Positions 4,504 to 28,882 of a stretch of 64,000 nucleotides of DNA are shown in pieces. Made by a program: the position numbers and the translations under genes. Position 1 is the first letter of the stretch, and each line of letters begins with the position of its first letter. Source of the stretch: Candidatus Gottesmanbacteria bacterium (GTDB lineage Bacteria; Patescibacteriota; Microgenomatia; UBA10105; UBA927); NCBI GenBank assembly GCA_963714095.1, contig OY970230.1:70206-134205 (forward strand), read 5' to 3'. Below the pieces are notes generated by a model that did not search any database, had not been told where the DNA came from, and saw nothing but the letters and a program-made list of their open reading frames with translations.

Positions 4504-5113
4504 ATTTCCAGCGTATCACGAGTATTTGCAGGTGACAATAAAGATTGTGAGCTGCTTATGGTACGTTGCTCCATATTTTCTACAATTCGTTCCGCAATAG
4601 AACCTATAGTTATGGTATAATCGTACAATGCCAGCCAATAACGAGTGTCTGCAATTACGGTTAGGTGAAAAAGTTCCGTGTCGGGGGGATGCCGAATACT
4701 ATGCAAAGGAATTGATTTGTCCTTTTTTAAAATGCATGGCTGCCGTAGCCTTAAGTGACCCTTATGGTTTACTAAAAAATGTTATGGGGAATCAAGTTAC
4801 GTTTCATGCAGCATCAGTCGTTCGAGAAGTTGTCTTCCATATGGTTTGTCCGGGATCTTTTAATCCTAATGCTGATGAAAATAAACTATTTGAGTATACT
4901 CCGGAAAAACCATTCATTGAATCGCCGGAATGGCTTAATCAATAGCACATTTCTGAATTTCCAAAACAAAGTGAGCGAGCTGTCCCGTAGGTGGAACACT
5001 ATACTCCCAAGTCTCCTGGCCACGTACGAAAAACTTCAGAAACTCGGATTTACCTACTGTGACGGCAAAGTTACTGTTATTATACCCGATTTAAACGGGA
5101 AAAAAGGAGGATC

Positions 5114-5611
5114 ATGAATAATCTTATTCTTTCCGGTGTTAAAAAACTGTTTCATCTGTCACCCGACCTCGTTCAATCTCAGCTTTTTAACGAGACCACG
5201 TTCTACAAACGGTTTATAACCGATCTTAAGCGCTCTAGAACGGAAGTTATCATCGAAAGCCCGTACATTACATCTCAACGCATGTTTCACCTGACAGAAG
5301 TCTTCAGAGAGTTGGTTCGAAGGAAGGTAAAGGTTTACGTTATCACCCGCGATCCGGACGACCACGATCCAAATCTCAAACGACAGGCAGAATGTGAGAT
5401 CAGACAGTTTGAAACGATGGGAATCCAGGTTTTAATCAGTAATGAATATTCTCACCGGAAACTGGCTATTATTGACCGGAAAGTACTTTGGGAAGGCAGC
5501 TTAAATATTCTCTCCCATACCTGCAGCCGGGAAATTATGAGGCGGATTGACAGTGAAGCTCAAGCCAAGGAATGTTTCAAGTTTATTAACCTTGGAAAAT
5601 ACATTTATTAA
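5114..5611 (+). CDS. Phospholipase D-family (single HKD) nuclease, Nuc-like
   Basis: HRKLAIIDRKVLWEGSLN is an HxK(x4)D...GSxN HKD motif. At 165 aa it is the size of dimeric Nuc-type endonucleases. Good RBS (AAAAGGAGGATC) upstream. Confidence 0.6.
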   Translation: MNNLILSGVKKLFHLSPDLVQSQLFNETTFYKRFITDLKRSRTEVIIESPYITSQRMFHLTEVFRELVRRKVKVYVITRDPDDHDPNLKRQAECEIRQFETMGIQVLISNEYSHRKLAIIDRKVLWEGSLNILSHTCSREIMRRIDSEAQAKECFKFINLGKYIY

Positions 5612-5627
5612 CAAACAATGGTAAATT

Positions 5628-5861
5628 GTGTATAATCGCACTATGAGCAAAATCGGCGGATACCAATTAAACGAAAAAGATATCGATGGCGTCCTTCGAT
5701 TTCTGAAAGCTACCGATCCAGAACATGCCACACCGGAGATGGCTATGGCCTTACTGGCGCATCTTAAAGCTCATTATCACATAAAAGCTTATCTTGAACC
5801 TGAGGAACTCGAAAAAGAGTATAAGGAACTTCTACACGAGATAGAAATGAAGAAGAATTAA
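5628..5861 (+). CDS. Small hypothetical protein (77 aa), helical
   Basis: ORF only. Sits between the PLD nuclease and the convergent HTH gene. Confidence 0.3.
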   Translation: MYNRTMSKIGGYQLNEKDIDGVLRFLKATDPEHATPEMAMALLAHLKAHYHIKAYLEPEELEKEYKELLHEIEMKKN

Positions 5862-6082
5862 AACGAGAGAATTTCCGAAGATTTAACCCCAAGAGCTCCC
5901 AAAATCTTTTTAAGTGTAATGACAGATGGAATAGCATCACCGCGTTCAACTTTAGCGTAAAAATTACTGTTCAAACCGGCTTTCTTGGCTACGTCAGTTT
6001 GAAACAAACCTTTTTTGAGACGGTATTTTTTCAATTTCGAAGCGATGTCCTGCCTTGTCTTTTCATCCTGCGGGTTAAGCAT
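5858..6082 (-). CDS. XRE-family helix-turn-helix transcriptional regulator
   Basis: KKGLFQTDVAKKAGLNSNFYAKVERGDAIPSVITLKKILGALGV is an HTH_3 pattern. Its first 12 codons lie inside the direct repeat. Confidence 0.6.
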   Translation of the reverse strand: MLNPQDEKTRQDIASKLKKYRLKKGLFQTDVAKKAGLNSNFYAKVERGDAIPSVITLKKILGALGVKSSEILSF

Positions 6083-6096
6083 ATAGGGATAGTATA
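6045..6096. repeat. Direct repeat copy 1 (~52 bp), covers the HTH start codon plus upstream sequence
   Basis: at[g/t]tcctgccttgtcttttcatcctgc[ggg/aga]ttaagcata[t/c]agggatagtata recurs at 8331–8382 with about 5 mismatches. Confidence 0.85.
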
Positions 6097-6167
6097 CATC
6101 AACGGTCTACTTTTCTGGAAATATTTATTGGTGTTACTTTTCTATTTATGGCCAAATTTAGTACAAT

Positions 6168-6683
6168 ATGGGCATATTAATTGATATGGATATTAAACAC
6201 TTTATAAGCGGGATACAAACAATTAACTGGGGTAATGTTCTTACTGCAATTTTAGGTATCTATGGGGCCATTTTAACAACTTATACGATTTACAAACAGC
6301 GAAAAGATAAAAAACCTAACGTAAAAACTTCTATATCAATGGGCTTTATGACTGGTGGCTTTGGAGCGAGTGAACTATTTCTTTTTGTTAAGGCCGCAAA
6401 TCATGGTGAAACTCCGGTTGTTCTTAGTTCTTGGCAATTAATATTACCCCATAAAAGACAATTAATTTACCCAAATGCCAACGGACAATCACACTTACCG
6501 TTTGCTTTGGAACAAAACAGAAATTATCAAGTATGGGTACCAGTCAAGGTAATAGCACGATCTTTGAATAAGTATGGATATAAAAACAAAATAAATATAA
6601 AGGCGGTCTATTTTGATGAACTAGAAAATAAGTATATTAGTAAAGATTTTAAGTTCGATATTAAGGAGTGGTTAAAGGAATAA
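6168..6683 (+). CDS. Small membrane protein (1 TM), hypothetical; first gene of the repeat-bracketed cassette
   Basis: TM helix VLTAILGIYGAILTTYTIY; no known motif. Confidence 0.4.
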   Translation: MGILIDMDIKHFISGIQTINWGNVLTAILGIYGAILTTYTIYKQRKDKKPNVKTSISMGFMTGGFGASELFLFVKAANHGETPVVLSSWQLILPHKRQLIYPNANGQSHLPFALEQNRNYQVWVPVKVIARSLNKYGYKNKINIKAVYFDELENKYISKDFKFDIKEWLKE

Positions 6684-6688
6684 ATACT

Positions 6689-8320
6689 ATGACAGATATT
6701 AAGTCACCATTTTTAAGATTTAGACACGGGACACCACTACAGGTTACTCCTGAAATACAACAGTCAATAAAGATATTCGTTGACCAGTATAAAAAGGAAG
6801 GCGAAGCCGCATTTAAAACACTTACTGAGGATATTGCTGACGGCTCTGGTTGGGGCATTCACCCTAACTCAACTTGGTATCGGGCAATTTACGAACTCTT
6901 TCGTATATACCGTGAGTGGGATGAACCGAACAGACAAGAAGCGCTTAAAAAGATTGTTGAAATAATCGAAGCGCTCGCATCTGACACCAATCCTGAAACG
7001 ATATGGGACAAAGTCGCTAATCTTATTAACGATAACATAGAAATTATTAGTGGATGGGAATACTCCCATATAAAACGGTTCAGCGAAGAAGAACATCTTA
7101 TTAGAGACACTGACGGTTCTTATTACAAAGAAGAAAATGGAAGAAAAATCCAAGTCATCGGTACAAAAACCCTTGAAGAAAATAAGTTTGGTTATATTGA
7201 AGACAACATTACTCGTGAACACGGCAACATTGGCATGTTACTAAAATTTATCGAGGAAGTATTTATTTCCCTTGACTTTAAACAAAATCCAAAGCACTAC
7301 CACAAACAACTACAATTCGCACTAAGTGAAAGTGATAATGACACGTGGTTTTTACATGGTTGTTGGCGCGTAAACTCCGCTTATGAGCTTATCCCTATCG
7401 CTTGGCATCCAAGATCCTGTTTTACCGATATTGAGTGGTTGAAAGCCGAAATGATTACTTTATTGGCAAACAAATGTCAGGTTTCTAAAGATGCTATCCC
7501 GGAAATAACTGTGGACGATGATAGTCTATTACAATTTCAAAAAGCTTTTAAAGGGTATCCCACTCAATATGAAGTTTCATTAGACACAAATGTATTACTT
7601 AGCAGTAATCCATTCGGAAAAACACCCCCAGAAGTATATATAGATTTTGGTGATAGAACTATCAGATGGATTAACGGAACAAAATATGTGTTTCCATCAC
7701 TCATTATTCCATCAAAGGATGATAATTATGAGGACGCCCGACAGATTGCACAAAAGTTTGTTAACGCTATTGTATTTTCAGAAAAAATACCCATTAGGAT
7801 TGTCTGGAGTGCCGGTTGCCCAAGTAAATTTCCACCATTAATAAGGCAACCAAGGTTAAGTATATTCATGGGTGTATCACAAGAAATACTGGGCTTACTA
7901 AGTCAACCTAAAAATGATAAAGAATGGGAAGCACTTTCCTATTACAAGGAAGCAGTTAATTCACAAAGTCCTTATTACAAATATGTGTGTTATTACAATG
8001 TCGTAAAACTAGCATTCCTTAATCCGAGCACAAATGATGAAGACAATACTAAAACCGACGATTGGATTAATAAACAAATCCTGAGGTCGGATATTACATC
8101 ACTACAGAAAAAGCTAACCTTACAAAATAGAACATTAGGGGAATATCTTAGGCACGAGGGTGGCAGGGATGCTATCCTACATGTTGGAACTCTTACAAGA
8201 GGCGGAACGCATTCAACCTTAAAACCTGACAATCAAGTGGATAGGCAGAAAATTGAAGAAATAATACCAGTTGTCGAGGAACTAGCTATAAAAGTTATTG
8301 AAACAGGACTGTTGAAATAA
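6689..8320 (+). CDS. Large hypothetical protein (~544 aa), no recognisable motifs; second gene of the cassette
   Basis: Long intact ORF overlapping the upstream gene. Start taken as MTDIKSPF. Confidence 0.5.
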   Translation: MTDIKSPFLRFRHGTPLQVTPEIQQSIKIFVDQYKKEGEAAFKTLTEDIADGSGWGIHPNSTWYRAIYELFRIYREWDEPNRQEALKKIVEIIEALASDTNPETIWDKVANLINDNIEIISGWEYSHIKRFSEEEHLIRDTDGSYYKEENGRKIQVIGTKTLEENKFGYIEDNITREHGNIGMLLKFIEEVFISLDFKQNPKHYHKQLQFALSESDNDTWFLHGCWRVNSAYELIPIAWHPRSCFTDIEWLKAEMITLLANKCQVSKDAIPEITVDDDSLLQFQKAFKGYPTQYEVSLDTNVLLSSNPFGKTPPEVYIDFGDRTIRWINGTKYVFPSLIIPSKDDNYEDARQIAQKFVNAIVFSEKIPIRIVWSAGCPSKFPPLIRQPRLSIFMGVSQEILGLLSQPKNDKEWEALSYYKEAVNSQSPYYKYVCYYNVVKLAFLNPSTNDEDNTKTDDWINKQILRSDITSLQKKLTLQNRTLGEYLRHEGGRDAILHVGTLTRGGTHSTLKPDNQVDRQKIEEIIPVVEELAIKVIETGLLK

Positions 8321-8330
8321 TTTTGAGGTT

Positions 8331-8382
8331 ATTTCCTGCCTTGTCTTTTCATCCTGCAGATTAAGCATACAGGGATAGTATA
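8331..8382. repeat. Direct repeat copy 2, includes a remnant of the HTH N-terminus (MLNLQDEKTRQ) with no gene body
   Basis: Its reverse complement encodes the same first 11–12 codons as the gene at 5858–6082, and then the match ends. Confidence 0.85.
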
Positions 8383-8480
8383 GCAAAAATCGGGATCTGA
8401 GTCTGCAAAGTGTACAAATTGTTAATCAGTATCTATATTGATAGAATAAATACGCTTGACGTAAATTATCGAAGTATTTT

Positions 8481-8858
8481 ATGACTATCTTAGAAGTAAC
8501 AAGCATCGCTAATGTAATTATCCTGCTCATAACTGTTGTGGTAGCCGGAATTTATGCGTGGCTTACTCATGGAATAAGAGAAACATCCATCCAACAACTA
8601 AAACATAGCTTAATGCCATTTCCAATCGTTTATTTAAAGGGCAGAGATTTAAAGGGACATCTAAATACAATCTTTTTAGTTAAAAACATCGGAAATGGAA
8701 CAGCGTTGAATATACAAATTGAGGATTTCAATTTACACATAAAGGACAATATTAACGGCAGAAAAATTGATGAGAAATATAAGATGACTTTAAAAATGAA
8801 AAATCCGAACATTTTAGAAAAGGGTGGAGAAAGTGAATTAATAACAGAACATTCTTAA
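8481..8858 (+). CDS. Small N-terminally membrane-anchored hypothetical protein
   Basis: TM helix IANVIILLITVVVAGIYAWL. A promoter-like TTGACG-N17-TATTTT lies upstream. Confidence 0.35.
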   Translation: MTILEVTSIANVIILLITVVVAGIYAWLTHGIRETSIQQLKHSLMPFPIVYLKGRDLKGHLNTIFLVKNIGNGTALNIQIEDFNLHIKDNINGRKIDEKYKMTLKMKNPNILEKGGESELITEHS

Positions 8859-8869
8859 ATAACAAAAGT

Positions 8870-9073
8870 ATGGGCCCTGGATATAGCTTATCTCCATATC
8901 TCGATCCAAGATTTTCAAATATGGAAATCCCTTTAACGCTCAATTATCTTGACATCACAGGCAGAAAATATTCAACTAAAATTAGTTTTGGAACAGGGAA
9001 ATTGAATATAATCGAGCCCCCTCGTGAAGAAAAACTTAAAAAAGCAACTCAACTTTCAAGTGAACTACCATGA
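8870..9073 (+). CDS. Hypothetical small protein (possibly the frameshifted continuation of 8481–8858)
   Basis: ORF only; different frame from the upstream gene. Confidence 0.2.
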   Translation: MGPGYSLSPYLDPRFSNMEIPLTLNYLDITGRKYSTKISFGTGKLNIIEPPREEKLKKATQLSSELP

Positions 9074-9116
9074 TATTTCTTGAACAAAATCTTCAGTTAA
9101 TAACTGAATCATATAC

Positions 9117-10937
9117 TTATATTTGTCCAGTTAGATTATATTTTTTAGCCGTTGCCTTCAAAAAGTTGTCAACATCTTTCCCAAACCAACCAAAAAACGA
9201 GGCAAAATTGTAAGTCTTGCTCCTTTGCCTTTTTATATCTTCAATCGCCTCAAAGATGAACTTATCGAATTGTTCATAATTTAAAGAGTTGTGTTTATCT
9301 GTTACAAAATAATTTTCTAATTCTGAATAACCTTTTTGTTGATATAGAGTTATTAATCTTTCTAGGATTGGGGATACTTTATCAGAATTCAGGTTTAAGA
9401 AACTAGCAAAATATGCAAACGGCGACTGCCAATAATCATATTCACCGTATACATTGCTTCTTAGTTCATTAATTTTGTATTCCGCTGTCCCATCCGGTAG
9501 CTGTGCCTTCAATTGATTAAACTCAACCTCTTTTAGTTTTTGTTGGGCCACCCAATTATGAATTAGCACTTGCGAGTTAAGTTCCTTGATTAAATCAAAA
9601 GATGCTAACCAATTTTCTTCGTCATCGTCATCATCGAAAACATCAGGTATTAAATAATTTTCTTTACTGGAGTAGTTACTCTTTTCGACAAAGTAATTAA
9701 TTAAGTTTTTATACGACTTTCCATCCGAAGTTCTTAGCTCAGCTATTCCTGAGTACTCTTCCTTGCCACTTGCACTTAAAAACATCATTAATCTGCTTTC
9801 ATGTTCATCTTCCCATTTTGTTTTCAGGTTAATTAGTTTTGAAATATAACTTGAGTTACCTAATTTAGTTGCATAAGCTCCAAGTAGATTAAAAGCAGTC
9901 ATACTCTCTAAAGATGGCAGGCTGAAAGATAAATTTTCATCCAAATATTTATGATTTTGGACAAATTGAATACCATAATTGGGTTTATATCCGTAGGCAT
10001 AAAGCTCTGCTAAAATTTGTAGTAGGCGGTCGAATATTGACGGGTATGATCTTGTTTTGATTAACTGACTACCAAGCAGAACCAGTTTACGTACAGCTGG
10101 CTGTAGCTGACTGACTTTTGCATCATGAGTTAAATCAGTAAGTGTTTCTAGATCTTCAGGTTTAATTGTGTCGTGTTTGGTTTTCTTCCAAGAGCCTATT
10201 GTATTTTGACGTAAATTTTCAATTAGCTCCCGAAGATAGATCGACCGTTCGCCTAAAATTAACTGCTTTATGATATTAAGAAAAATTTCATCCTCCTTAT
10301 AAATTAAAGACAAATCGAAATTTTCCGGTGAAATGAGTTCGTGTGCAAGTGTAGATACCTGTTTTGTTTTCAATGCTTCGCTTACCCTTATTTGTGTTCT
10401 TTTTTCAGTTAATTGTTCCACATATAAATCAAACATTTCATATAAGTCGTTCCTTGTAGCTCGCCGTTTTGAAGATGATCCACTTTTTCCACCGCCCTTG
10501 ATCCAAATTTCACCTAGGTTTAGGTAAGCTTCTTTACCTTGCTCTTTCATCTCCTTCTTGATCAAATGCGGTGGGGTTAATTTATCTTTGGGAAACTCTA
10601 TAACAATGAAGTGTTTATTATCTTTAGTAACAAAAGCGTGACTTTTAAAAGTTATTTCTGGATCAAAATAGGCTGAAAATAAGGAAACTAATTTTCCATC
10701 ATCAAATTCCTGGTAATTAGATACGTCTTTAAAGGTTTTATTGTTTTTATTGTATCCAACAACCAAATACCTGATTGGCTCTGGGGAAAGGGAATTGCAC
10801 AGACTTTGTACATCCTTAATAAATTCAGCTTTATTTTCCAATGTATTCCAATTTATTTGCTCTTTTACCTCAAAATGGGAATACTCACCAAGCTCTTCCT
10901 TTAACAGGTTTAGAATTTTTTGTTCTAGTTCTTCCAT
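9117..10937 (-). CDS. Hypothetical 606-aa protein; N-terminus weakly AlbA_2/Schlafen-like
   Basis: Intact ORF immediately downstream of the degraded hsdR-ygjP genes on the same strand. The N-terminal HFEVKEQ...IRYLVVGYNKNNKTFKDV loosely resembles the ExxLEFK...GG.L.GV pattern. Confidence 0.45.
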   Translation of the reverse strand: MEELEQKILNLLKEELGEYSHFEVKEQINWNTLENKAEFIKDVQSLCNSLSPEPIRYLVVGYNKNNKTFKDVSNYQEFDDGKLVSLFSAYFDPEITFKSHAFVTKDNKHFIVIEFPKDKLTPPHLIKKEMKEQGKEAYLNLGEIWIKGGGKSGSSSKRRATRNDLYEMFDLYVEQLTEKRTQIRVSEALKTKQVSTLAHELISPENFDLSLIYKEDEIFLNIIKQLILGERSIYLRELIENLRQNTIGSWKKTKHDTIKPEDLETLTDLTHDAKVSQLQPAVRKLVLLGSQLIKTRSYPSIFDRLLQILAELYAYGYKPNYGIQFVQNHKYLDENLSFSLPSLESMTAFNLLGAYATKLGNSSYISKLINLKTKWEDEHESRLMMFLSASGKEEYSGIAELRTSDGKSYKNLINYFVEKSNYSSKENYLIPDVFDDDDDEENWLASFDLIKELNSQVLIHNWVAQQKLKEVEFNQLKAQLPDGTAEYKINELRSNVYGEYDYWQSPFAYFASFLNLNSDKVSPILERLITLYQQKGYSELENYFVTDKHNSLNYEQFDKFIFEAIEDIKRQRSKTYNFASFFGWFGKDVDNFLKATAKKYNLTGQI

Positions 10938-10953
10938 ATATATTCCGATTAGG

Positions 10954-11687
10954 TTAATAAATCCACTTTTCGTATGATAACGGCATTTTATTTAATTCAT
11001 CTTTGAACATTCTCCACTTCGGTATGTTTTTGTCCATCAATTTCAAAAAGGCGTCGTTGTGCTTTTTCTCTGTCAAATGACAGAATTCATGCACTAGTAC
11101 GTATTCGATGCAAGCCGAGGGCTTTTTAATTAATTCTAAATTAAGCCAGATTGATTTTTTTTGCTGATTACATGATCCCAACGGGTCTTCATGTGCCTTA
11201 TACCAACTTTATTTACTTTGACATTCATTTTCTTTTCCCATTTTATAATTAATTTATCGATAACTTGCTTTAGTTGAATCCGGTACCATTTTGAGAATTG
11301 ATATCCTCTATTATCAAGAGATGTACCCTTCAAGATCTCCAAAATAATTTGTGTTTTACCTTTAATAGATATGTTGGATTTATCGTTAGTTTCCACAACT
11401 TTAAGTCTGTATGGTTTTCCTAAAAAGTAGTGACTTTCACCACTGACGTATTCACGAATCGATTGTCTTTTTTGGTTTTGAAATTTTATTTGTTGTTTCT
11501 TAATCCAAGAGGATCGAGAGATAATTGCCATCCTGATGGCTTCATCCTTCATTTTCAAAGGTGAGGTGATTCTTACCCTGCCAGTCGGAGGCAATACCGA
11601 TACATGAAGATTCTTAATATTCTTTTTTATAACTTGAATCGGTATACCCCTAATTGAAATAGTCTGTTTATCATTATCGGTATTCAT
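10954..11687 (-). pseudogene. YgjP-like (DUF45/M48-type) zinc metallohydrolase, frameshifted
   Basis: The N-terminal piece ends ...GIRHMKTRWD. The C-terminal piece reads GSCNQQKKSIWLNLELIKKPSACIEYVLVHEFCHL (HExxH) in another frame. One base is missing in a G-run near 11178. Confidence 0.6.
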
Positions 11688-14600
11688 TTTGTTCTTTGAC
11701 TAATGCAAAGATCCGATCAAATTCCTCATCGGACACATCTGAAAGGATCTGTCGTAAGTTAATTTTCACCATTCTTTCTTTGATTTTGTTCCCAATCCAA
11801 TCATCTGGGCGGTTTCTCATACCGGTATCAACGTTTAAAGCTAATTCTTCGTCCTGATTCAAATTATCATATAAAGATTGTTTGGCACGTGTATTGACGC
11901 TAGCTGGATAGTGTCCATTTTTACTCGGATCGTTAACTTGTTTTGTTAAATCAGTAATTTGCCGTAAATACTCTTGATACTCCAACGCTTCCTGCCGTCT
12001 GTCCCTAACTAATTGATCAAGAATTTCCGACATTCTCTGGAAATATTTTGGGTTGGTCGGCATCTCATCAATAATTAATCGCCTGACATTATTTTCAATA
12101 GTTTCCGCCACCGCATCTTTATTTTTCTTCATCTCATCCGGTAGATTATCAACTGCCTCTGGGCCTTTGGAAGCTAACATATCAACTAGGGACAAATCAT
12201 CAAAGGCGGAAAATTCTCTGATTCACGAGCGGTTATGTATCGGTCAATCAACATTCGCATATCTGGCTCATATTTTTTGAGATCGATGTAATCGCCGCTG
12301 GCTAGTTTGATCTCGGTCTTTACCTGGCTATAATGTTCAATTTCAATCCTAATCGCGTTTGCTTTCGATTCATCAAATCCTGCCTCAGTTAATTCGTTGG
12401 CAATTTCAGCAAATACCCGAACCAAGTGGGCCGTCATTCGATATAATTTAACCCGTTTAAATTCGTTTTCTTTAAGCGAGTAGGGATTTTCAATATCTCC
12501 ACAGAAATATTTGATGTAATCAACACTTGTTTTAGGAGGGGCCACTGGTTCACAAAGCGCCCGAACCTGTTCAAGTGCTTCTTCCAAATCCTCCTTACCT
12601 TGTCCAAGACGATCCTTAAGAAGTCCCAAAACATCTTCCTTGTCATAGGCGGCAAAAGCTTCACTGGTATAGTCTGTAACAGCCTTTCCAGCTTCTTAAA
12701 AAGATCCCGATAGTCAATAATAAAACCATATTCTTTGTCTTCACCATGTAATCGATTAACTCGGCAAATAGCCTGGAATAACCCATGATCCTGCATGTTT
12801 TTATCAACATACAAATATGTTGCTGGTGGGGCATCAAATCCGGTCAGAAGTTTATCAACCACGATCAGAAGCTGCATCTTGGCGGGTTGCTTAATAAATA
12901 GCTCTTTAACTTGTCTTTCAAAAGCTTCGATTTCTGTTTCATTGGGCTTTTTGGTAATTCCCCCAAAGTTGTTCTTAAAGTTATCAAGCATCTTTTGGTA
13001 AATAGCATATTCGCGATCTTAGGTATTAAGAGCCCCAGCTTCATAAGAGGTCACAATCGCACAATTTTTAAATCCTTTGTTTTGGAAAATTTCATAATAC
13101 TGGCAGGCTTCATAAATTGAACTGGCTACGAGCATGGCATTACCTCGACCGCTGGCAAGTCTTGGTTTCATGAAGTCATCATCCAAAATATCAAACACAA
13201 CTCTTTCTAGCCTAATCCCGGAACTGAGTAATGTTTGCATCGTACCCCAGCGTTTTTTTAACTCTGCTTTGGCAACATCGGTGAGCCCTTGGGTTCGGTC
13301 TTCAAACCAGGCGTCAATCTTGCTCTGGGAAGTAATATCCTGATCCACTCTTCGTGCTTCATACCGTAAATCCAAAACAACCTTATCTTTGACTGCTTCG
13401 TCATACTTATAGGTGTGAATAAAATTCCCAAATGTGGCAATACTATTATGTTTATCGACAGACAAAAGTGGTGTACCAGTAAACCCGATAAAAGTGGCTT
13501 TGGGAAGTAATTCCAGCATGGCTTCATGCAACTTGCCGCCATGGGTACGATGACACTCATCAACAAAGACAAAAATATCCCCTTTGGCTTTGAAGTCACT
13601 TGGAAGATTCTTCTTTATTTCGTTGATAAACTGATCAACATCCTGATCGTTTGCCCCTTCTCTTGATCCGAATTTATGAATTAGAGAACAGATTAGCCAT
13701 TTTTCTTCCTGATTGAGTTTGGTGATTAAGTCTTTAGAATTTTTAGTTCTGTAGATATTTTCTCCAACCCCCCTAAATACCCCCTCAATTTGTTCATCCA
13801 ATTCCGTCCGGTCTGTAAGTATCAATACACGTGACGAAGTTATACTTTCCCTGATCCATTTTGCTAACCAAACCATGGTTAAACTCTTACCGCTGCCTTG
13901 GGTGTGCCAGATAATTCCACCTTCATGCCGTTTGACATATTCCTGAGCTGCTTTTACCCCAAAAAATTGGTTATGTCTGGCTAGTTTTTTACTGCCACTA
14001 TCAAAGACTTCAAAGTCATGGATTATTTCCAGAAACCTTTCCTTTTCACAAAATTGGAGAATATGTTTATCCAGACGAATCTCGTCATCGAGTCCTTTCT
14101 CTTTCCAGGATAGGTAATATTCTTAGCTGTCTCAATCGTGCCGTAGCGCATACCCTCGGTATCATTACCAGCCATGAGTATTTGTATAGTGGTAAAGAAG
14201 TTTTTTATATATTCATTCTTCTGGTTGCCGATATTTGCCGGAGAGCTTCTGAAACCGAGACAATACTTCTTTTTAGTTCAATAACGCCTAAAGCAATACC
14301 ATTCACATAAATCACAATATCGGGTCGCTTCGTCTTTTGTCCCTTTATAGTAACTTCTCGGCAATCGCAAAATCATTTGCTTGAGGATTCGCCCAATCAA
14401 TAAGCCAAACTGTTTCTGTTTGTTCACCAACACCGGCTTTTACCTTAACTCCATAGCGAAGCATACTGTAGATGCTTTGATTAAGATCGTACAAGCTTTG
14501 GATTTGATTTGTCGCAACTCTGGTGAGCTCAAAAATAGCTTTGTCGATCAAATTATCGCTATAGCCCCGAGCCTTGAGGTTATTTCTAAGGAATTCTTCT

Positions 14601-25673: not shown

Positions 25674-25702
25674 TGACATTATGCCTATAGGGATAGTATA
25701 TT
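25674..25702 (+). promoter_or_regulatory. Near-consensus sigma70-type promoter TTGACA-N17-TATATT overlapping the TAGGGATAGTATA motif
   Basis: Read directly; 34 bp upstream of the small ORF 25736–25894. Confidence 0.5.
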
Positions 25703-25735: not shown

Positions 25736-25894
25736 ATGGGAAGACTAAAAGGATCAGTTAACAAGATTTCTTCAAAAAGACCAAAGACTTCGTCACTTTC
25801 TTCGGAAGATCGCATCAAATTCCTTGCCAATATTATTATCGACCGAATCCTTGAAGATCAGAAGAATGGACAGCCGTTATACAAACAAAATTAA
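25736..25894 (+). CDS. Small ORF (52 aa) immediately upstream of the recombinase, below the ORF-track cutoff
   Basis: MGRLKGSVNKISSKRPKTSSLSSEDRIKFLANIIIDRILEDQKNGQPLYKQN. AGGCTAAAACC upstream is a weak RBS. Confidence 0.3.
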   Translation: MGRLKGSVNKISSKRPKTSSLSSEDRIKFLANIIIDRILEDQKNGQPLYKQN

Positions 25895-27701: not shown

Positions 27702-28007
27702 ATGTCAAAAACCGTTCCGAAGCATTTATGGAATTTTTTCTGGGACGTTGACCCCCAGACGCTTGACCCCAACCAAAAAGCAAATTTTGTCATAGGAAGA
27801 CTCCTCGAAAAGGGCAATGATAAAGCGGTTTCTTGGGTACTTCACAACTATCCTCTTAAGACTATTAAGCATGTTTTTAGCACCATCCGGGATTTTAGCC
27901 CGAAAACGGCTAATTTTTGGAGCATATACCTTGGTATTCCGGAGGACGAAATATTATGTTTACAGGAACCTTACCGGAGCCAGCGCAAAAGGCTCTGGCC
28001 GTATTAG
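27702..28007 (+). CDS. Small partner protein of the AbiEii-like nucleotidyltransferase (putative antitoxin-like)
   Basis: LWNFFWDVDPQTLDPNQKANFVIGRLLEKGNDKAVSWVL. Ends at an in-frame TAG 33 nt before the NTase start. Confidence 0.4.
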   Translation: MSKTVPKHLWNFFWDVDPQTLDPNQKANFVIGRLLEKGNDKAVSWVLHNYPLKTIKHVFSTIRDFSPKTANFWSIYLGIPEDEILCLQEPYRSQRKRLWPY

Positions 28008-28040
28008 GAAAAAATTTTTAGTTTCCCTACTCCTACGTAT

Positions 28041-28592
28041 TTGGCCGGAGGGAGCTGGTTGGCATTATATTTAGGACATCGGATTTCGGTGGATTTCGAT
28101 TTTTTTACACCGGTTAGCTTTAATCCGGAAATAATGGCTAAACAGCTTTCTAAGTTGGGAAGTTTTAGTGTAGCCACCATCGCTCCAAATACACTCCTCG
28201 GGGTATTTAATGAAACCAAATTTAGCATGTTCTGTTATGAGTATCCGTCTCTTTTTCCTACAAATAACGTCTGGGGCATACATGTAGCAGATAAACGGGA
28301 TATTGCAGCGATGAAAATAGCTGCGGTCATGGACCGAGGAACAAAAAAGGACTTCATCGATCTGTATTTTCTTTCAAAAGAAGGTATTACGCTTAACGAC
28401 AGTTTAAGCTACTACGATAATAAATATGGCTCTTTGGCAAATAATCTATATAGTATTTTAAAAAGCTTTACCTATTTTGTTGATGCGGAAGAATCGGAAA
28501 TGCCAAAAATGCTAAAACTGGTTTCGTGGGATGAAGTAAAAACATTTTTTAGACATCAATCTACCCACCTTGCCGACACGCTTCTCAAATAA
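28041..28592 (+). CDS. AbiEii/AbiGii-family nucleotidyltransferase (putative toxin), TTG start
   Basis: YLAGGSWLALYLGHRISVDFDFF matches the GGTAL.LY...R.S.DiDf core of DUF1814/AbiEii. Confidence 0.5.
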   Translation: MAGGSWLALYLGHRISVDFDFFTPVSFNPEIMAKQLSKLGSFSVATIAPNTLLGVFNETKFSMFCYEYPSLFPTNNVWGIHVADKRDIAAMKIAAVMDRGTKKDFIDLYFLSKEGITLNDSLSYYDNKYGSLANNLYSILKSFTYFVDAEESEMPKMLKLVSWDEVKTFFRHQSTHLADTLLK

Positions 28593-28742
28593 ATGACAAG
28601 ATATGACAAATAGTCCTCATTGTATTTTATGATGCTGATGCGCAGCATATATATCTCCCGGGAACGGGTAAACGATTATCGAAGCAGTCAAGTCTATACC
28701 AATCACCTGAGTTCAGAGTGATGCTCTAGCTTATTCTGACAA

Positions 28743-28814
28743 TCTAAGTCTGTGAGTCGGCAGGGGCTCGAACCCTGAACCAACAGCTTAAAAGGCTGCT
28801 GCTCTACCGTTGAG
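28743..28814 (-). tRNA. tRNA-Lys (anticodon UUU)
   Basis: Folded by hand: acceptor GGGTCGG/CCGACTC, T-loop GGTTCGAGCCC, anticodon loop CTTTTAA. Confidence 0.7.
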
Positions 28815-28882
28815 CTACCGACCCGTGAAGCTATTATACCAAATTTCCGCATGAATTATGATATCGTGAAGACTTTGAAGTA

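Follow-up and report, generated by a model that had tools for sequence, protein, structure and literature searches.

Within a stretch of 64,000 nt from the genome of a Candidatus Gottesmanbacteria bacterium (contig OY970230.1; the whole stretch is called the window here, and positions refer to it) a pair of imperfect direct repeats lies at the 5' end of a gene for a small helix-turn-helix (HTH) regulator. This repeat is a recombination scar of an ordinary, known kind; the part of the Patescibacteria genome in which it lies carries defence genes and changes fast. Its two copies bracket an inserted cassette (6105-8318, plus strand), and the second copy is the leftover outer end of a resident HTH gene, consisting of the promoter, an apparently leaderless ATG and 17 codons. 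The intact HTH gene on the other side of the cassette belongs to a sharply bounded module (4971-6104) made up of a small open reading frame (ORF), a gene for a PLD-family nuclease-like protein, a gene for a 72-aa protein and the HTH gene itself. We regard it as probable, if only by a modest measure, that a single event left the scar: a diverged module together with the cassette would have displaced the resident module by homology-anchored recombination, sparing only its outermost 64 nt.

The repeat search on the window returned two segments of 64 nt in direct orientation, copy 1 at 6033-6096 and copy 2 at 8319-8382, with 88% identity and a spacing of 2286 nt. The imperfect direct repeats of about 52 bp reported in a preliminary description of this DNA are real and lie inside these 64 nt, and the alignment of both copies, suggested there as a check, is gapless and shows them to be significantly similar. 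In the repeat core (6048-6096 versus 8334-8382) 46 of 49 positions are identical. A 24-nt exact core is found at two sites only in the 64 kb, which are the two copies, and had no match in 100 shuffles; a repeat of this kind is not expected by chance.

Both copies are read on the minus strand. Copy 1 holds the -10 element of the HTH gene, 8 nt, the ATG and HTH codons 1-17, and it reaches 14-15 nt upstream of the ATG. The start codon and the upstream part had been described correctly before, whereas the number of codons is 17 and not 12. Copy 2 consists of the promoter, the ATG and 17 codons of a second HTH allele, of which it is a relic. Its reading is MLNLQDEKTRQEITSKL, followed by unrelated residues and a stop after 28 codons, so the earlier statement that it lacks a gene body holds; that copy 2 lies within an intact gene was considered and rejected for this 28-codon stub. 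On its inner side copy 2 is joined to the stop codon of the second cassette gene, which encodes a MauJ-like protein: the TAA at 8318-8320 is the complement of the TTA for Leu17, and the C-terminus of the MauJ-like protein at this joint (ETGLLK, then the stop) is the same as in the homologues P0001 and P0003. Because the inner edge of copy 2 abuts a natural stop codon and only TAA and TTA overlap, the joint is as expected for an illegitimate one. This inner edge (8319) is the only true breakpoint of copy 2. The right edge of the repeat is the upstream edge of the minimal HTH promoter and not a special recombination boundary, since homology between HTH alleles in different contexts ends just upstream of the -10 element, which makes it a functional edge of the gene.

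The empty site that the preliminary description had proposed to search for was found in the related locus L050, which was reached through the gene to the right of the cassette, TM2 (8481-9073, plus strand). In the window TM2 is frameshifted into parts of 125 aa (8481-8858) and 67 aa. It appeared as an orphan in a search clustered at 90%, and its own 90% cluster holds a member of 197 aa that leads to L050, where the gene is intact. The order in L050 is a partial 72-aa gene, an intact 74-aa HTH gene, one repeat copy and intact TM2. Positions 1-418 of L050 are 88.3% identical to 5679-6096 of the window, positions 367-1128 are 97.1% identical to 8331-9091, and the 52-nt overlap of these two matches is the repeat. 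As L050 thus combines an intact HTH gene and a single repeat with the sequence of 8383 onward, the cassette is a true insertion/deletion polymorphism at the HTH 5' end, and the gene natively next to the HTH gene at the empty site, in divergent orientation, is TM2. The two sides of the repeat are not equally diverged. To the left 49 of 418 positions differ between L050 and the window (11.7%), spread evenly over the HTH and 72-aa genes and reaching about 13% within 5687-6056, to the right the divergence is about 2.4%, and the switch falls exactly at the repeat.

Comparing the copies with each other and with HTH alleles of other genomes suggests that their divergence is allelic and not the result of decay after an in situ duplication. 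Where the copies differ in coding sequence, the third position of the codon is affected in six of eight cases (p = 0.02). Against copy 1, copy 2 scores 44/48 and 12/18, which makes it as distant as the HTH alleles of other genomes, and the GAAATA encoding E12 and I13 in copy 2 is common to the alleles of L014-16 and L002. Copy 1 has an 8-nt extension upstream of its -10 element, CGTTGATG, which is also present in the alleles of L012/L035 and L016; these stand in unrelated contexts and have no cassette, which suggests that copy 1 came with the incoming module and not with the cassette. Recombination in the HTH gene is directly visible when the window is compared with the near-identical strain L002, as the gene has been swapped between the two. 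The 22 differences are clustered at 5800-6100, with none in about 5200-5800 and almost none from 6100 to about 12,200; outside the cluster the strains are nearly free of differences all the way from about 5100. The L002 gene starts with MLSSQDEKTRQEIAAKL, and the pattern is that of a recent HTH allele replacement confined to about 250 nt. The third-position bias, the allele swap with L002, the divergence jump against L050 and the CGTTGATG extension together argue against a duplication in situ with subsequent decay and for recombination between diverged alleles. In view of the third-position bias, the distance of copy 2 and the allele swap, the divergence of roughly 10% finds no support as the sign of an old event, for which it was taken before.

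The module itself behaves as a discrete unit. In all relatives the homology to the window extends from 4971 to 6096/6104 and ends on both sides, with a conservation of 65-99%. The PLD-side end (...CGCTCAC) is base-exact in eight loci, and at the HTH end at least ten related contigs lose homology to the window within about 10 nt of one point (6096-6104) and continue with different genes, which bears out the earlier idea of a hotspot. At least ten different gene sets are found as HTH-end neighbours, several with recognisable defence genes. L035 has AbiV and SIR2-HerA there, L042 a C5-methylase with Vsr, L036 a methylase set, L014 and L053-55 a restriction-endonuclease-like set, and L051/52 type I restriction-modification (R-M). 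Whichever two loci are compared, the flanks on both sides of the module differ, so that it resembles a unit that is small and either mobile or often transferred.

The proposed displacement can be laid out as follows. A resident HTH copy would once have stood directly beside TM2, as it does in L050. The incoming DNA would have consisted of a diverged allele of the PLD / 72-aa / HTH module with the adjacent cassette, and would have recombined with the shared module, or with DNA to its left, as homologous anchor. At the other end an illegitimate joint may have connected the stop codon of the MauJ-like gene to the resident HTH gene after codon 17. Only the outermost 64 nt of the resident module would have survived this, as the present partner of the incoming HTH 5' end in the direct repeat. 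Such an exchange would be a case of homology-facilitated illegitimate recombination (HFIR), that is, successive displacement. Successive displacement by HFIR has been proposed for the effector-immunity arrays of Vibrio cholerae's type VI secretion system (T6SS) and for the orphan arrays of Rhs and contact-dependent inhibition (CDI) systems (PMC5361080). Three features of homology-anchored displacement, namely a shared anchor, a truncated relic at the far joint and a discontinuity of divergence, are present here, and the import of a foreign module with its cassette in one step explains why the divergence from L050 switches at the repeat. Both the direction of the event and its mechanism are read from the arrangement of the sequences and are to be taken as probable only. 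Further support comes from L051, which besides an intact module (6330-7454) has a 116-nt relic (2103-2218) of the PLD-side end of a different allele in direct orientation. This relic shares 82% identity with the L036 allele; four genes and 4.1 kb separate it from the intact module, and it is the mirror image of the HTH-end relic in the window.

Several observations weigh against the displacement account. Beyond the lineage to which the window itself belongs (L001, L002, L013), no donor locus with the module beside the cassette came to light. L050 is only 1.1 kb long, so that the left crossover is outside its reach, and it does not carry the displaced allele: its HTH 5' end differs from copy 1 at 5 and from copy 2 at 10 of 64 positions. 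Moreover, the three relics seen so far (64, 116 and 22 nt, the last at 25679-25700 of the window) all keep only the extreme end of a module, a regularity that exceeds what random illegitimate endpoints would give and may hint at selection acting on the relic or at a step that is site-specific. The L050 allele is not an exact match to either copy, so that every model has to assume allele turnover after the event, and allele identity, which we had considered as arbiter between HFIR and a Campbell-type integration, allows no choice.

In a Campbell-type integration a circular cassette carrying a 5' HTH fragment would have entered the resident HTH gene by a single crossover in the segment of about 64 nt and thereby duplicated it; the crossover could have been mediated by RecA or by a recombinase in trans, such as an ancestral serine recombinase of the module. 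Direct repeats around the insert and exactly one repeat copy at the empty site are what this would produce. Relatives of the module do encode a large serine recombinase, and just downstream of MauJ-like genes in L003, L008 and L009 there is a convergent XRE HTH gene or its relic, so that the cassette could have carried an HTH fragment. These HTH genes, however, are of a different subfamily (34-41% identical), the cassette encodes no integrase or recombinase but only its two proteins, and the window lacks the module's serine recombinase. Serine integrases are not known to leave long direct repeats. A retained resident HTH gene should also match L050 as closely as the right flank does, at about 97%, but the value is 88%; the alleles fit only with a crossover in the last 12 nt, and among roughly 40 related HTH-module loci there is no second cassette bracketed in this way. 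We therefore consider this integration rather unlikely. Still somewhat less credit is given to two tandem modules in the same orientation, one with the cassette and one beside TM2, followed by a deletion that spared the last 64 nt of the second. It agrees with the behaviour of the module as a mobile unit with sharp ends in many contexts, with the end relics in L051 and at 25679-25700, and with copy 2 being a distinct allele, yet it needs at least two events and a deletion endpoint exactly at the MauJ-like stop codon, and tandem intact modules are not present in any locus seen.

A reversed polarity, in which the window would have the ancestral arrangement and recombination of the two repeat copies would have removed the cassette from L050, is very improbable. 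Direct repeats of 64 nt can mediate a deletion, and the product would resemble L050. But the L050 copy equals copy 1 at all three core difference positions and nevertheless has the flank of copy 2, which forces the crossover into the last 12 nt; the divergence of 12-13% between L050 and the window in the HTH and 72-aa genes would be left unexplained, and TM2 is intact in L050 while it is frameshifted in the window. Hardly any credence remains for a transposon-style target-site duplication or an integron-like attC/attI event, both of which fail in their defining features. The bare fact of direct repeats around a small gene set had led the preliminary description to think of a target duplication or site-specific insertion. 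Transposon target-site duplications are short (about 2-14 bp) and identical direct repeats, whereas the repeat here has 64 nt, is imperfect (88%) and shows an allelic pattern of differences. Neither cassette protein matched a transposase or IntI model in Pfam, PADLOC or NCBIfam, no terminal inverted repeats were found at the cassette ends, and there is no tyrosine recombinase among the neighbouring PLD, 72-aa and HTH genes. Folding both copies as DNA on both strands gave no attC-like hairpin (z-scores +0.75 to +1.25, no better than shuffles). The target-site duplication is thus dropped, and a site-specific insertion finds no support either; the cassette is without an integrase, and the right edge of the repeat is a promoter boundary.

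Beyond the displacement account one may ask whether the ends of the module are more than passive. It is conceivable, although we think it decidedly doubtful, that the module represents an undescribed family of small Patescibacteria mobile elements whose termini are active recombination or regulatory sites. With equally little confidence, the end relics (8319-8382, 25679-25700 and the 116 nt of L051) may have been kept non-randomly, as capture sites or as HTH-controlled orphan promoters or operators for defence cassettes; the relic at 8319-8382, with its promoter at 8377-8385, could then drive an antisense transcript into the 3' end of the MauJ-like gene. If this were true, the module would be a platform for gene capture and control and not a passive scar. 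The 22-nt motif of the HTH end is TTAAGCATATAGGGATAGTATA, with the relic instance at 8361-8382, and a third partial copy lies at 25679-25700 on the minus strand (TTATGCCTATAGGGATAGTATA, 20/22). This third copy is inside a TTGACA-N18-TATATT promoter upstream of a 52-aa ORF (25736-25894) and a degraded serine recombinase (25903 onward); it may have been left behind by the end of a further module, or may serve the HTH protein as an operator. An 84-aa ORF directly upstream of the L017 HTH gene is similar to the 52-aa ORF.

Between the repeat copies there are exactly two plus-strand genes, as was described before. The first, TM1 (6168-6683), encodes a membrane protein of 171 aa with one hydrophobic helix, in line with the earlier account, and may start at the ATG at 6186. 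TM1 has no family match in Pfam, PADLOC or NCBIfam. Its only homologue, P0026, adjoins a resolvase and a 1128-aa protein. The region upstream of TM1 (6140-6190) has homology to L003 (7940-8005) and L009 (930-970), where it covers the promoter and start of the MauJ-like genes; TM1, which these loci lack, was probably added behind an existing MauJ-like promoter. A relation of TM1 and TM2 as paralogues, by tandem duplication of promoter plus gene, was rejected because they have no similarity.

The second cassette gene (6689-8320, plus strand) encodes the MauJ-domain protein, which had been listed with 544 aa and has 543. Its C-terminus matches Pfam MauJ and has a HEPN-like domain, in which the R493-x4-H498 motif is invariant in 23 homologues, in agreement with the R-x4-6-H of HEPN proteins. 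We therefore predict this protein to be a HEPN/MauJ-like RNase, and the cassette may be a HEPN-RNase defence module of the abortive-infection or toxin type. The contexts of the 23 homologues vary and are mobile or defence-related; a fusion to a MerR/HTH_17 domain is seen in some, and some adjoin proteins that by eye alone look HEPN-like from their R-x4-6-H motifs. Just downstream of several there is a convergent XRE HTH gene or its relic, as mentioned above. The closest homologue that is not from the lineage of the window itself (87%) is in L008, where the MauJ-like gene has downstream of it, in convergent orientation, the 3' remnant of an XRE HTH gene (1963-2080, ending in ERNPTVRTLYKLAKALSVSSRELLPF and a stop); in L003 an intact HTH gene lies at that place. 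The HTH subfamily of L008 and L003 differs from that of the window. A PDB sequence search with the MauJ-like profile gave nothing significant, and a literature search for 'MauJ' plus 'defense' brought only irrelevant matches.

The arrangement can be compared with T6SS/Rhs arrays. There, too, one side has a conserved anchor, a new module is inserted, the truncated end of the displaced gene is found downstream as a short direct repeat, the alleles are diverged and close strains differ in content. In contrast, the small PLD / 72-aa / HTH module serves as anchor here in place of a gene for a secretion system or toxin, the relic is a promoter with a 5' end and not a 3' toxin tip or immunity gene, the host belongs to the Patescibacteria, also called Candidate Phyla Radiation (CPR), and the mechanism is deduced. 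With Campbell-integrating elements the scar shares direct repeats flanking the insert, a repeat that restores the 5' end of the target and a single-copy empty site; it differs in that the insert has no integrase, the copies differ allelically and the right edge is the promoter boundary of all alleles and not an att site. Variable defence cargo at the HTH end (SIR2-HerA plus AbiV in L035, C5-methylase plus Vsr in L042, type I R-M in L051 and in the window, the HEPN protein in the window) recalls defence-island hotspots, but both flanks of the anchor module vary, so that the module itself appears to move and there is no fixed chromosomal hotspot. Finally, controller (C) proteins of R-M systems and other small XRE regulators resemble the 74-aa XRE HTH protein, whose best PADLOC match is the R-M 'Control_protein' model (E = 2e-10), and they resemble it also in the apparently leaderless start right after the -10 element and the conserved motif overlapping its own promoter. 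Unlike C proteins, it has no cognate R-M pair in the module, and C-box operators were not identified.

The scar is a clean and datable example of the stacking of defence cassettes in reduced Patescibacteria genomes: the window shows the site filled, L050 shows it empty, and L002 documents allele swaps among strains that are otherwise nearly the same. The module, a by-product of this analysis, may be more useful than the repeat and is mildly interesting on its own account, with its exact ends, its putatively leaderless XRE regulator and a large serine recombinase in some copies. It recurs beside SIR2-HerA, AbiV, R-M and HEPN genes and might help as a marker in the search of CPR genomes for defence cargo.

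From the PLD side the module begins with the small ORF (4971-5117, plus strand; 48 aa from a GTG start), followed by the PLD-family nuclease-like protein of 165 aa (5114-5611, plus; Pfam PLDc_2, E = 1.3e-13) and the 72-aa protein (5643-5861, plus), which is not assigned to a family and whose gene is always convergent with the HTH gene and overlaps its 3' end. Module sizes range from 1.1 to 2.8 kb. In the loci L035, L036, L037, L017 and L015 the PLD and 72-aa genes are separated by a 60-aa ORF and a large serine recombinase of 489 aa, which resembles CcrB and XisF below their cut-offs. L035 (module at 7979-10743) is a Patescibacteria metagenome-assembled genome with an HTH protein 99% identical to that of the window. 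The window and several other relatives have neither the 60-aa ORF nor the recombinase, and 5539-5655 of the window corresponds in position to 8428-10176 of L035. We also considered the window's recombinase at 25.9 kb as the missing enzyme of the module and rejected it, as it is only distantly related and fragmented. In L035, L036, L037 and L017 a large serine recombinase does lie inside a unit with discrete ends and in different contexts, and the PLD / 72-aa / HTH module is a candidate small mobile element of Patescibacteria. The two module ends have no obvious similarity to each other when compared by eye, the repeat search not having been run on them. A literature search combining Patescibacteria, serine recombinase and defence returned no papers, and the module itself appears to be undescribed in the searchable literature.

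The HTH gene (5858-6082, minus strand) is intact and encodes an XRE-type regulator of 74 aa (Pfam HTH_3, E = 1.3e-12). It is preceded by an extended -10-like element (6091-6098, minus strand; TG plus TATACT, TGnTATACT), with the ATG 8 nt downstream. We aligned the HTH 5' regions of relatives from metagenomes and GTDB genomes with 51-99% protein identity, and every allele has the same layout of TG, usually one base, TATACT (or TATAAT/TATAGT), 8-9 nt and ATG. Because this leaves no room for a Shine-Dalgarno sequence between the -10 element and the ATG, the HTH mRNA is probably leaderless. The 72-aa gene of L023 is preceded by the same motif, TGTATACTATCCCC (399-412), with the ATG directly after it, and in the window the 72-aa gene has TGTGTATAAT, 6 nt and then the ATG; leaderless-type starts seem to be the rule in the module. 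Viral contigs were searched with the HTH protein and with a degenerate N-terminal DNA pattern; nothing was found with either, and a phage origin was rejected on this basis.

To the right of the scar a decayed type I R-M island occupies 10954-13876 of the window. In it the YgjP-like peptidase is in two pieces (11136-11687 and 10954-11181) and several ORFs are what is left of HsdR (11674-13876), and L051/L052 have an intact 978-aa HsdR beside the same kind of module. Further on, a DUF6922 / AbiEii toxin-antitoxin-like pair (27702-28592) is found next to a tRNA-Lys (28752-28824) and the degraded serine recombinase, and the region 27702-28824 is probably the remnant of another integrated element.

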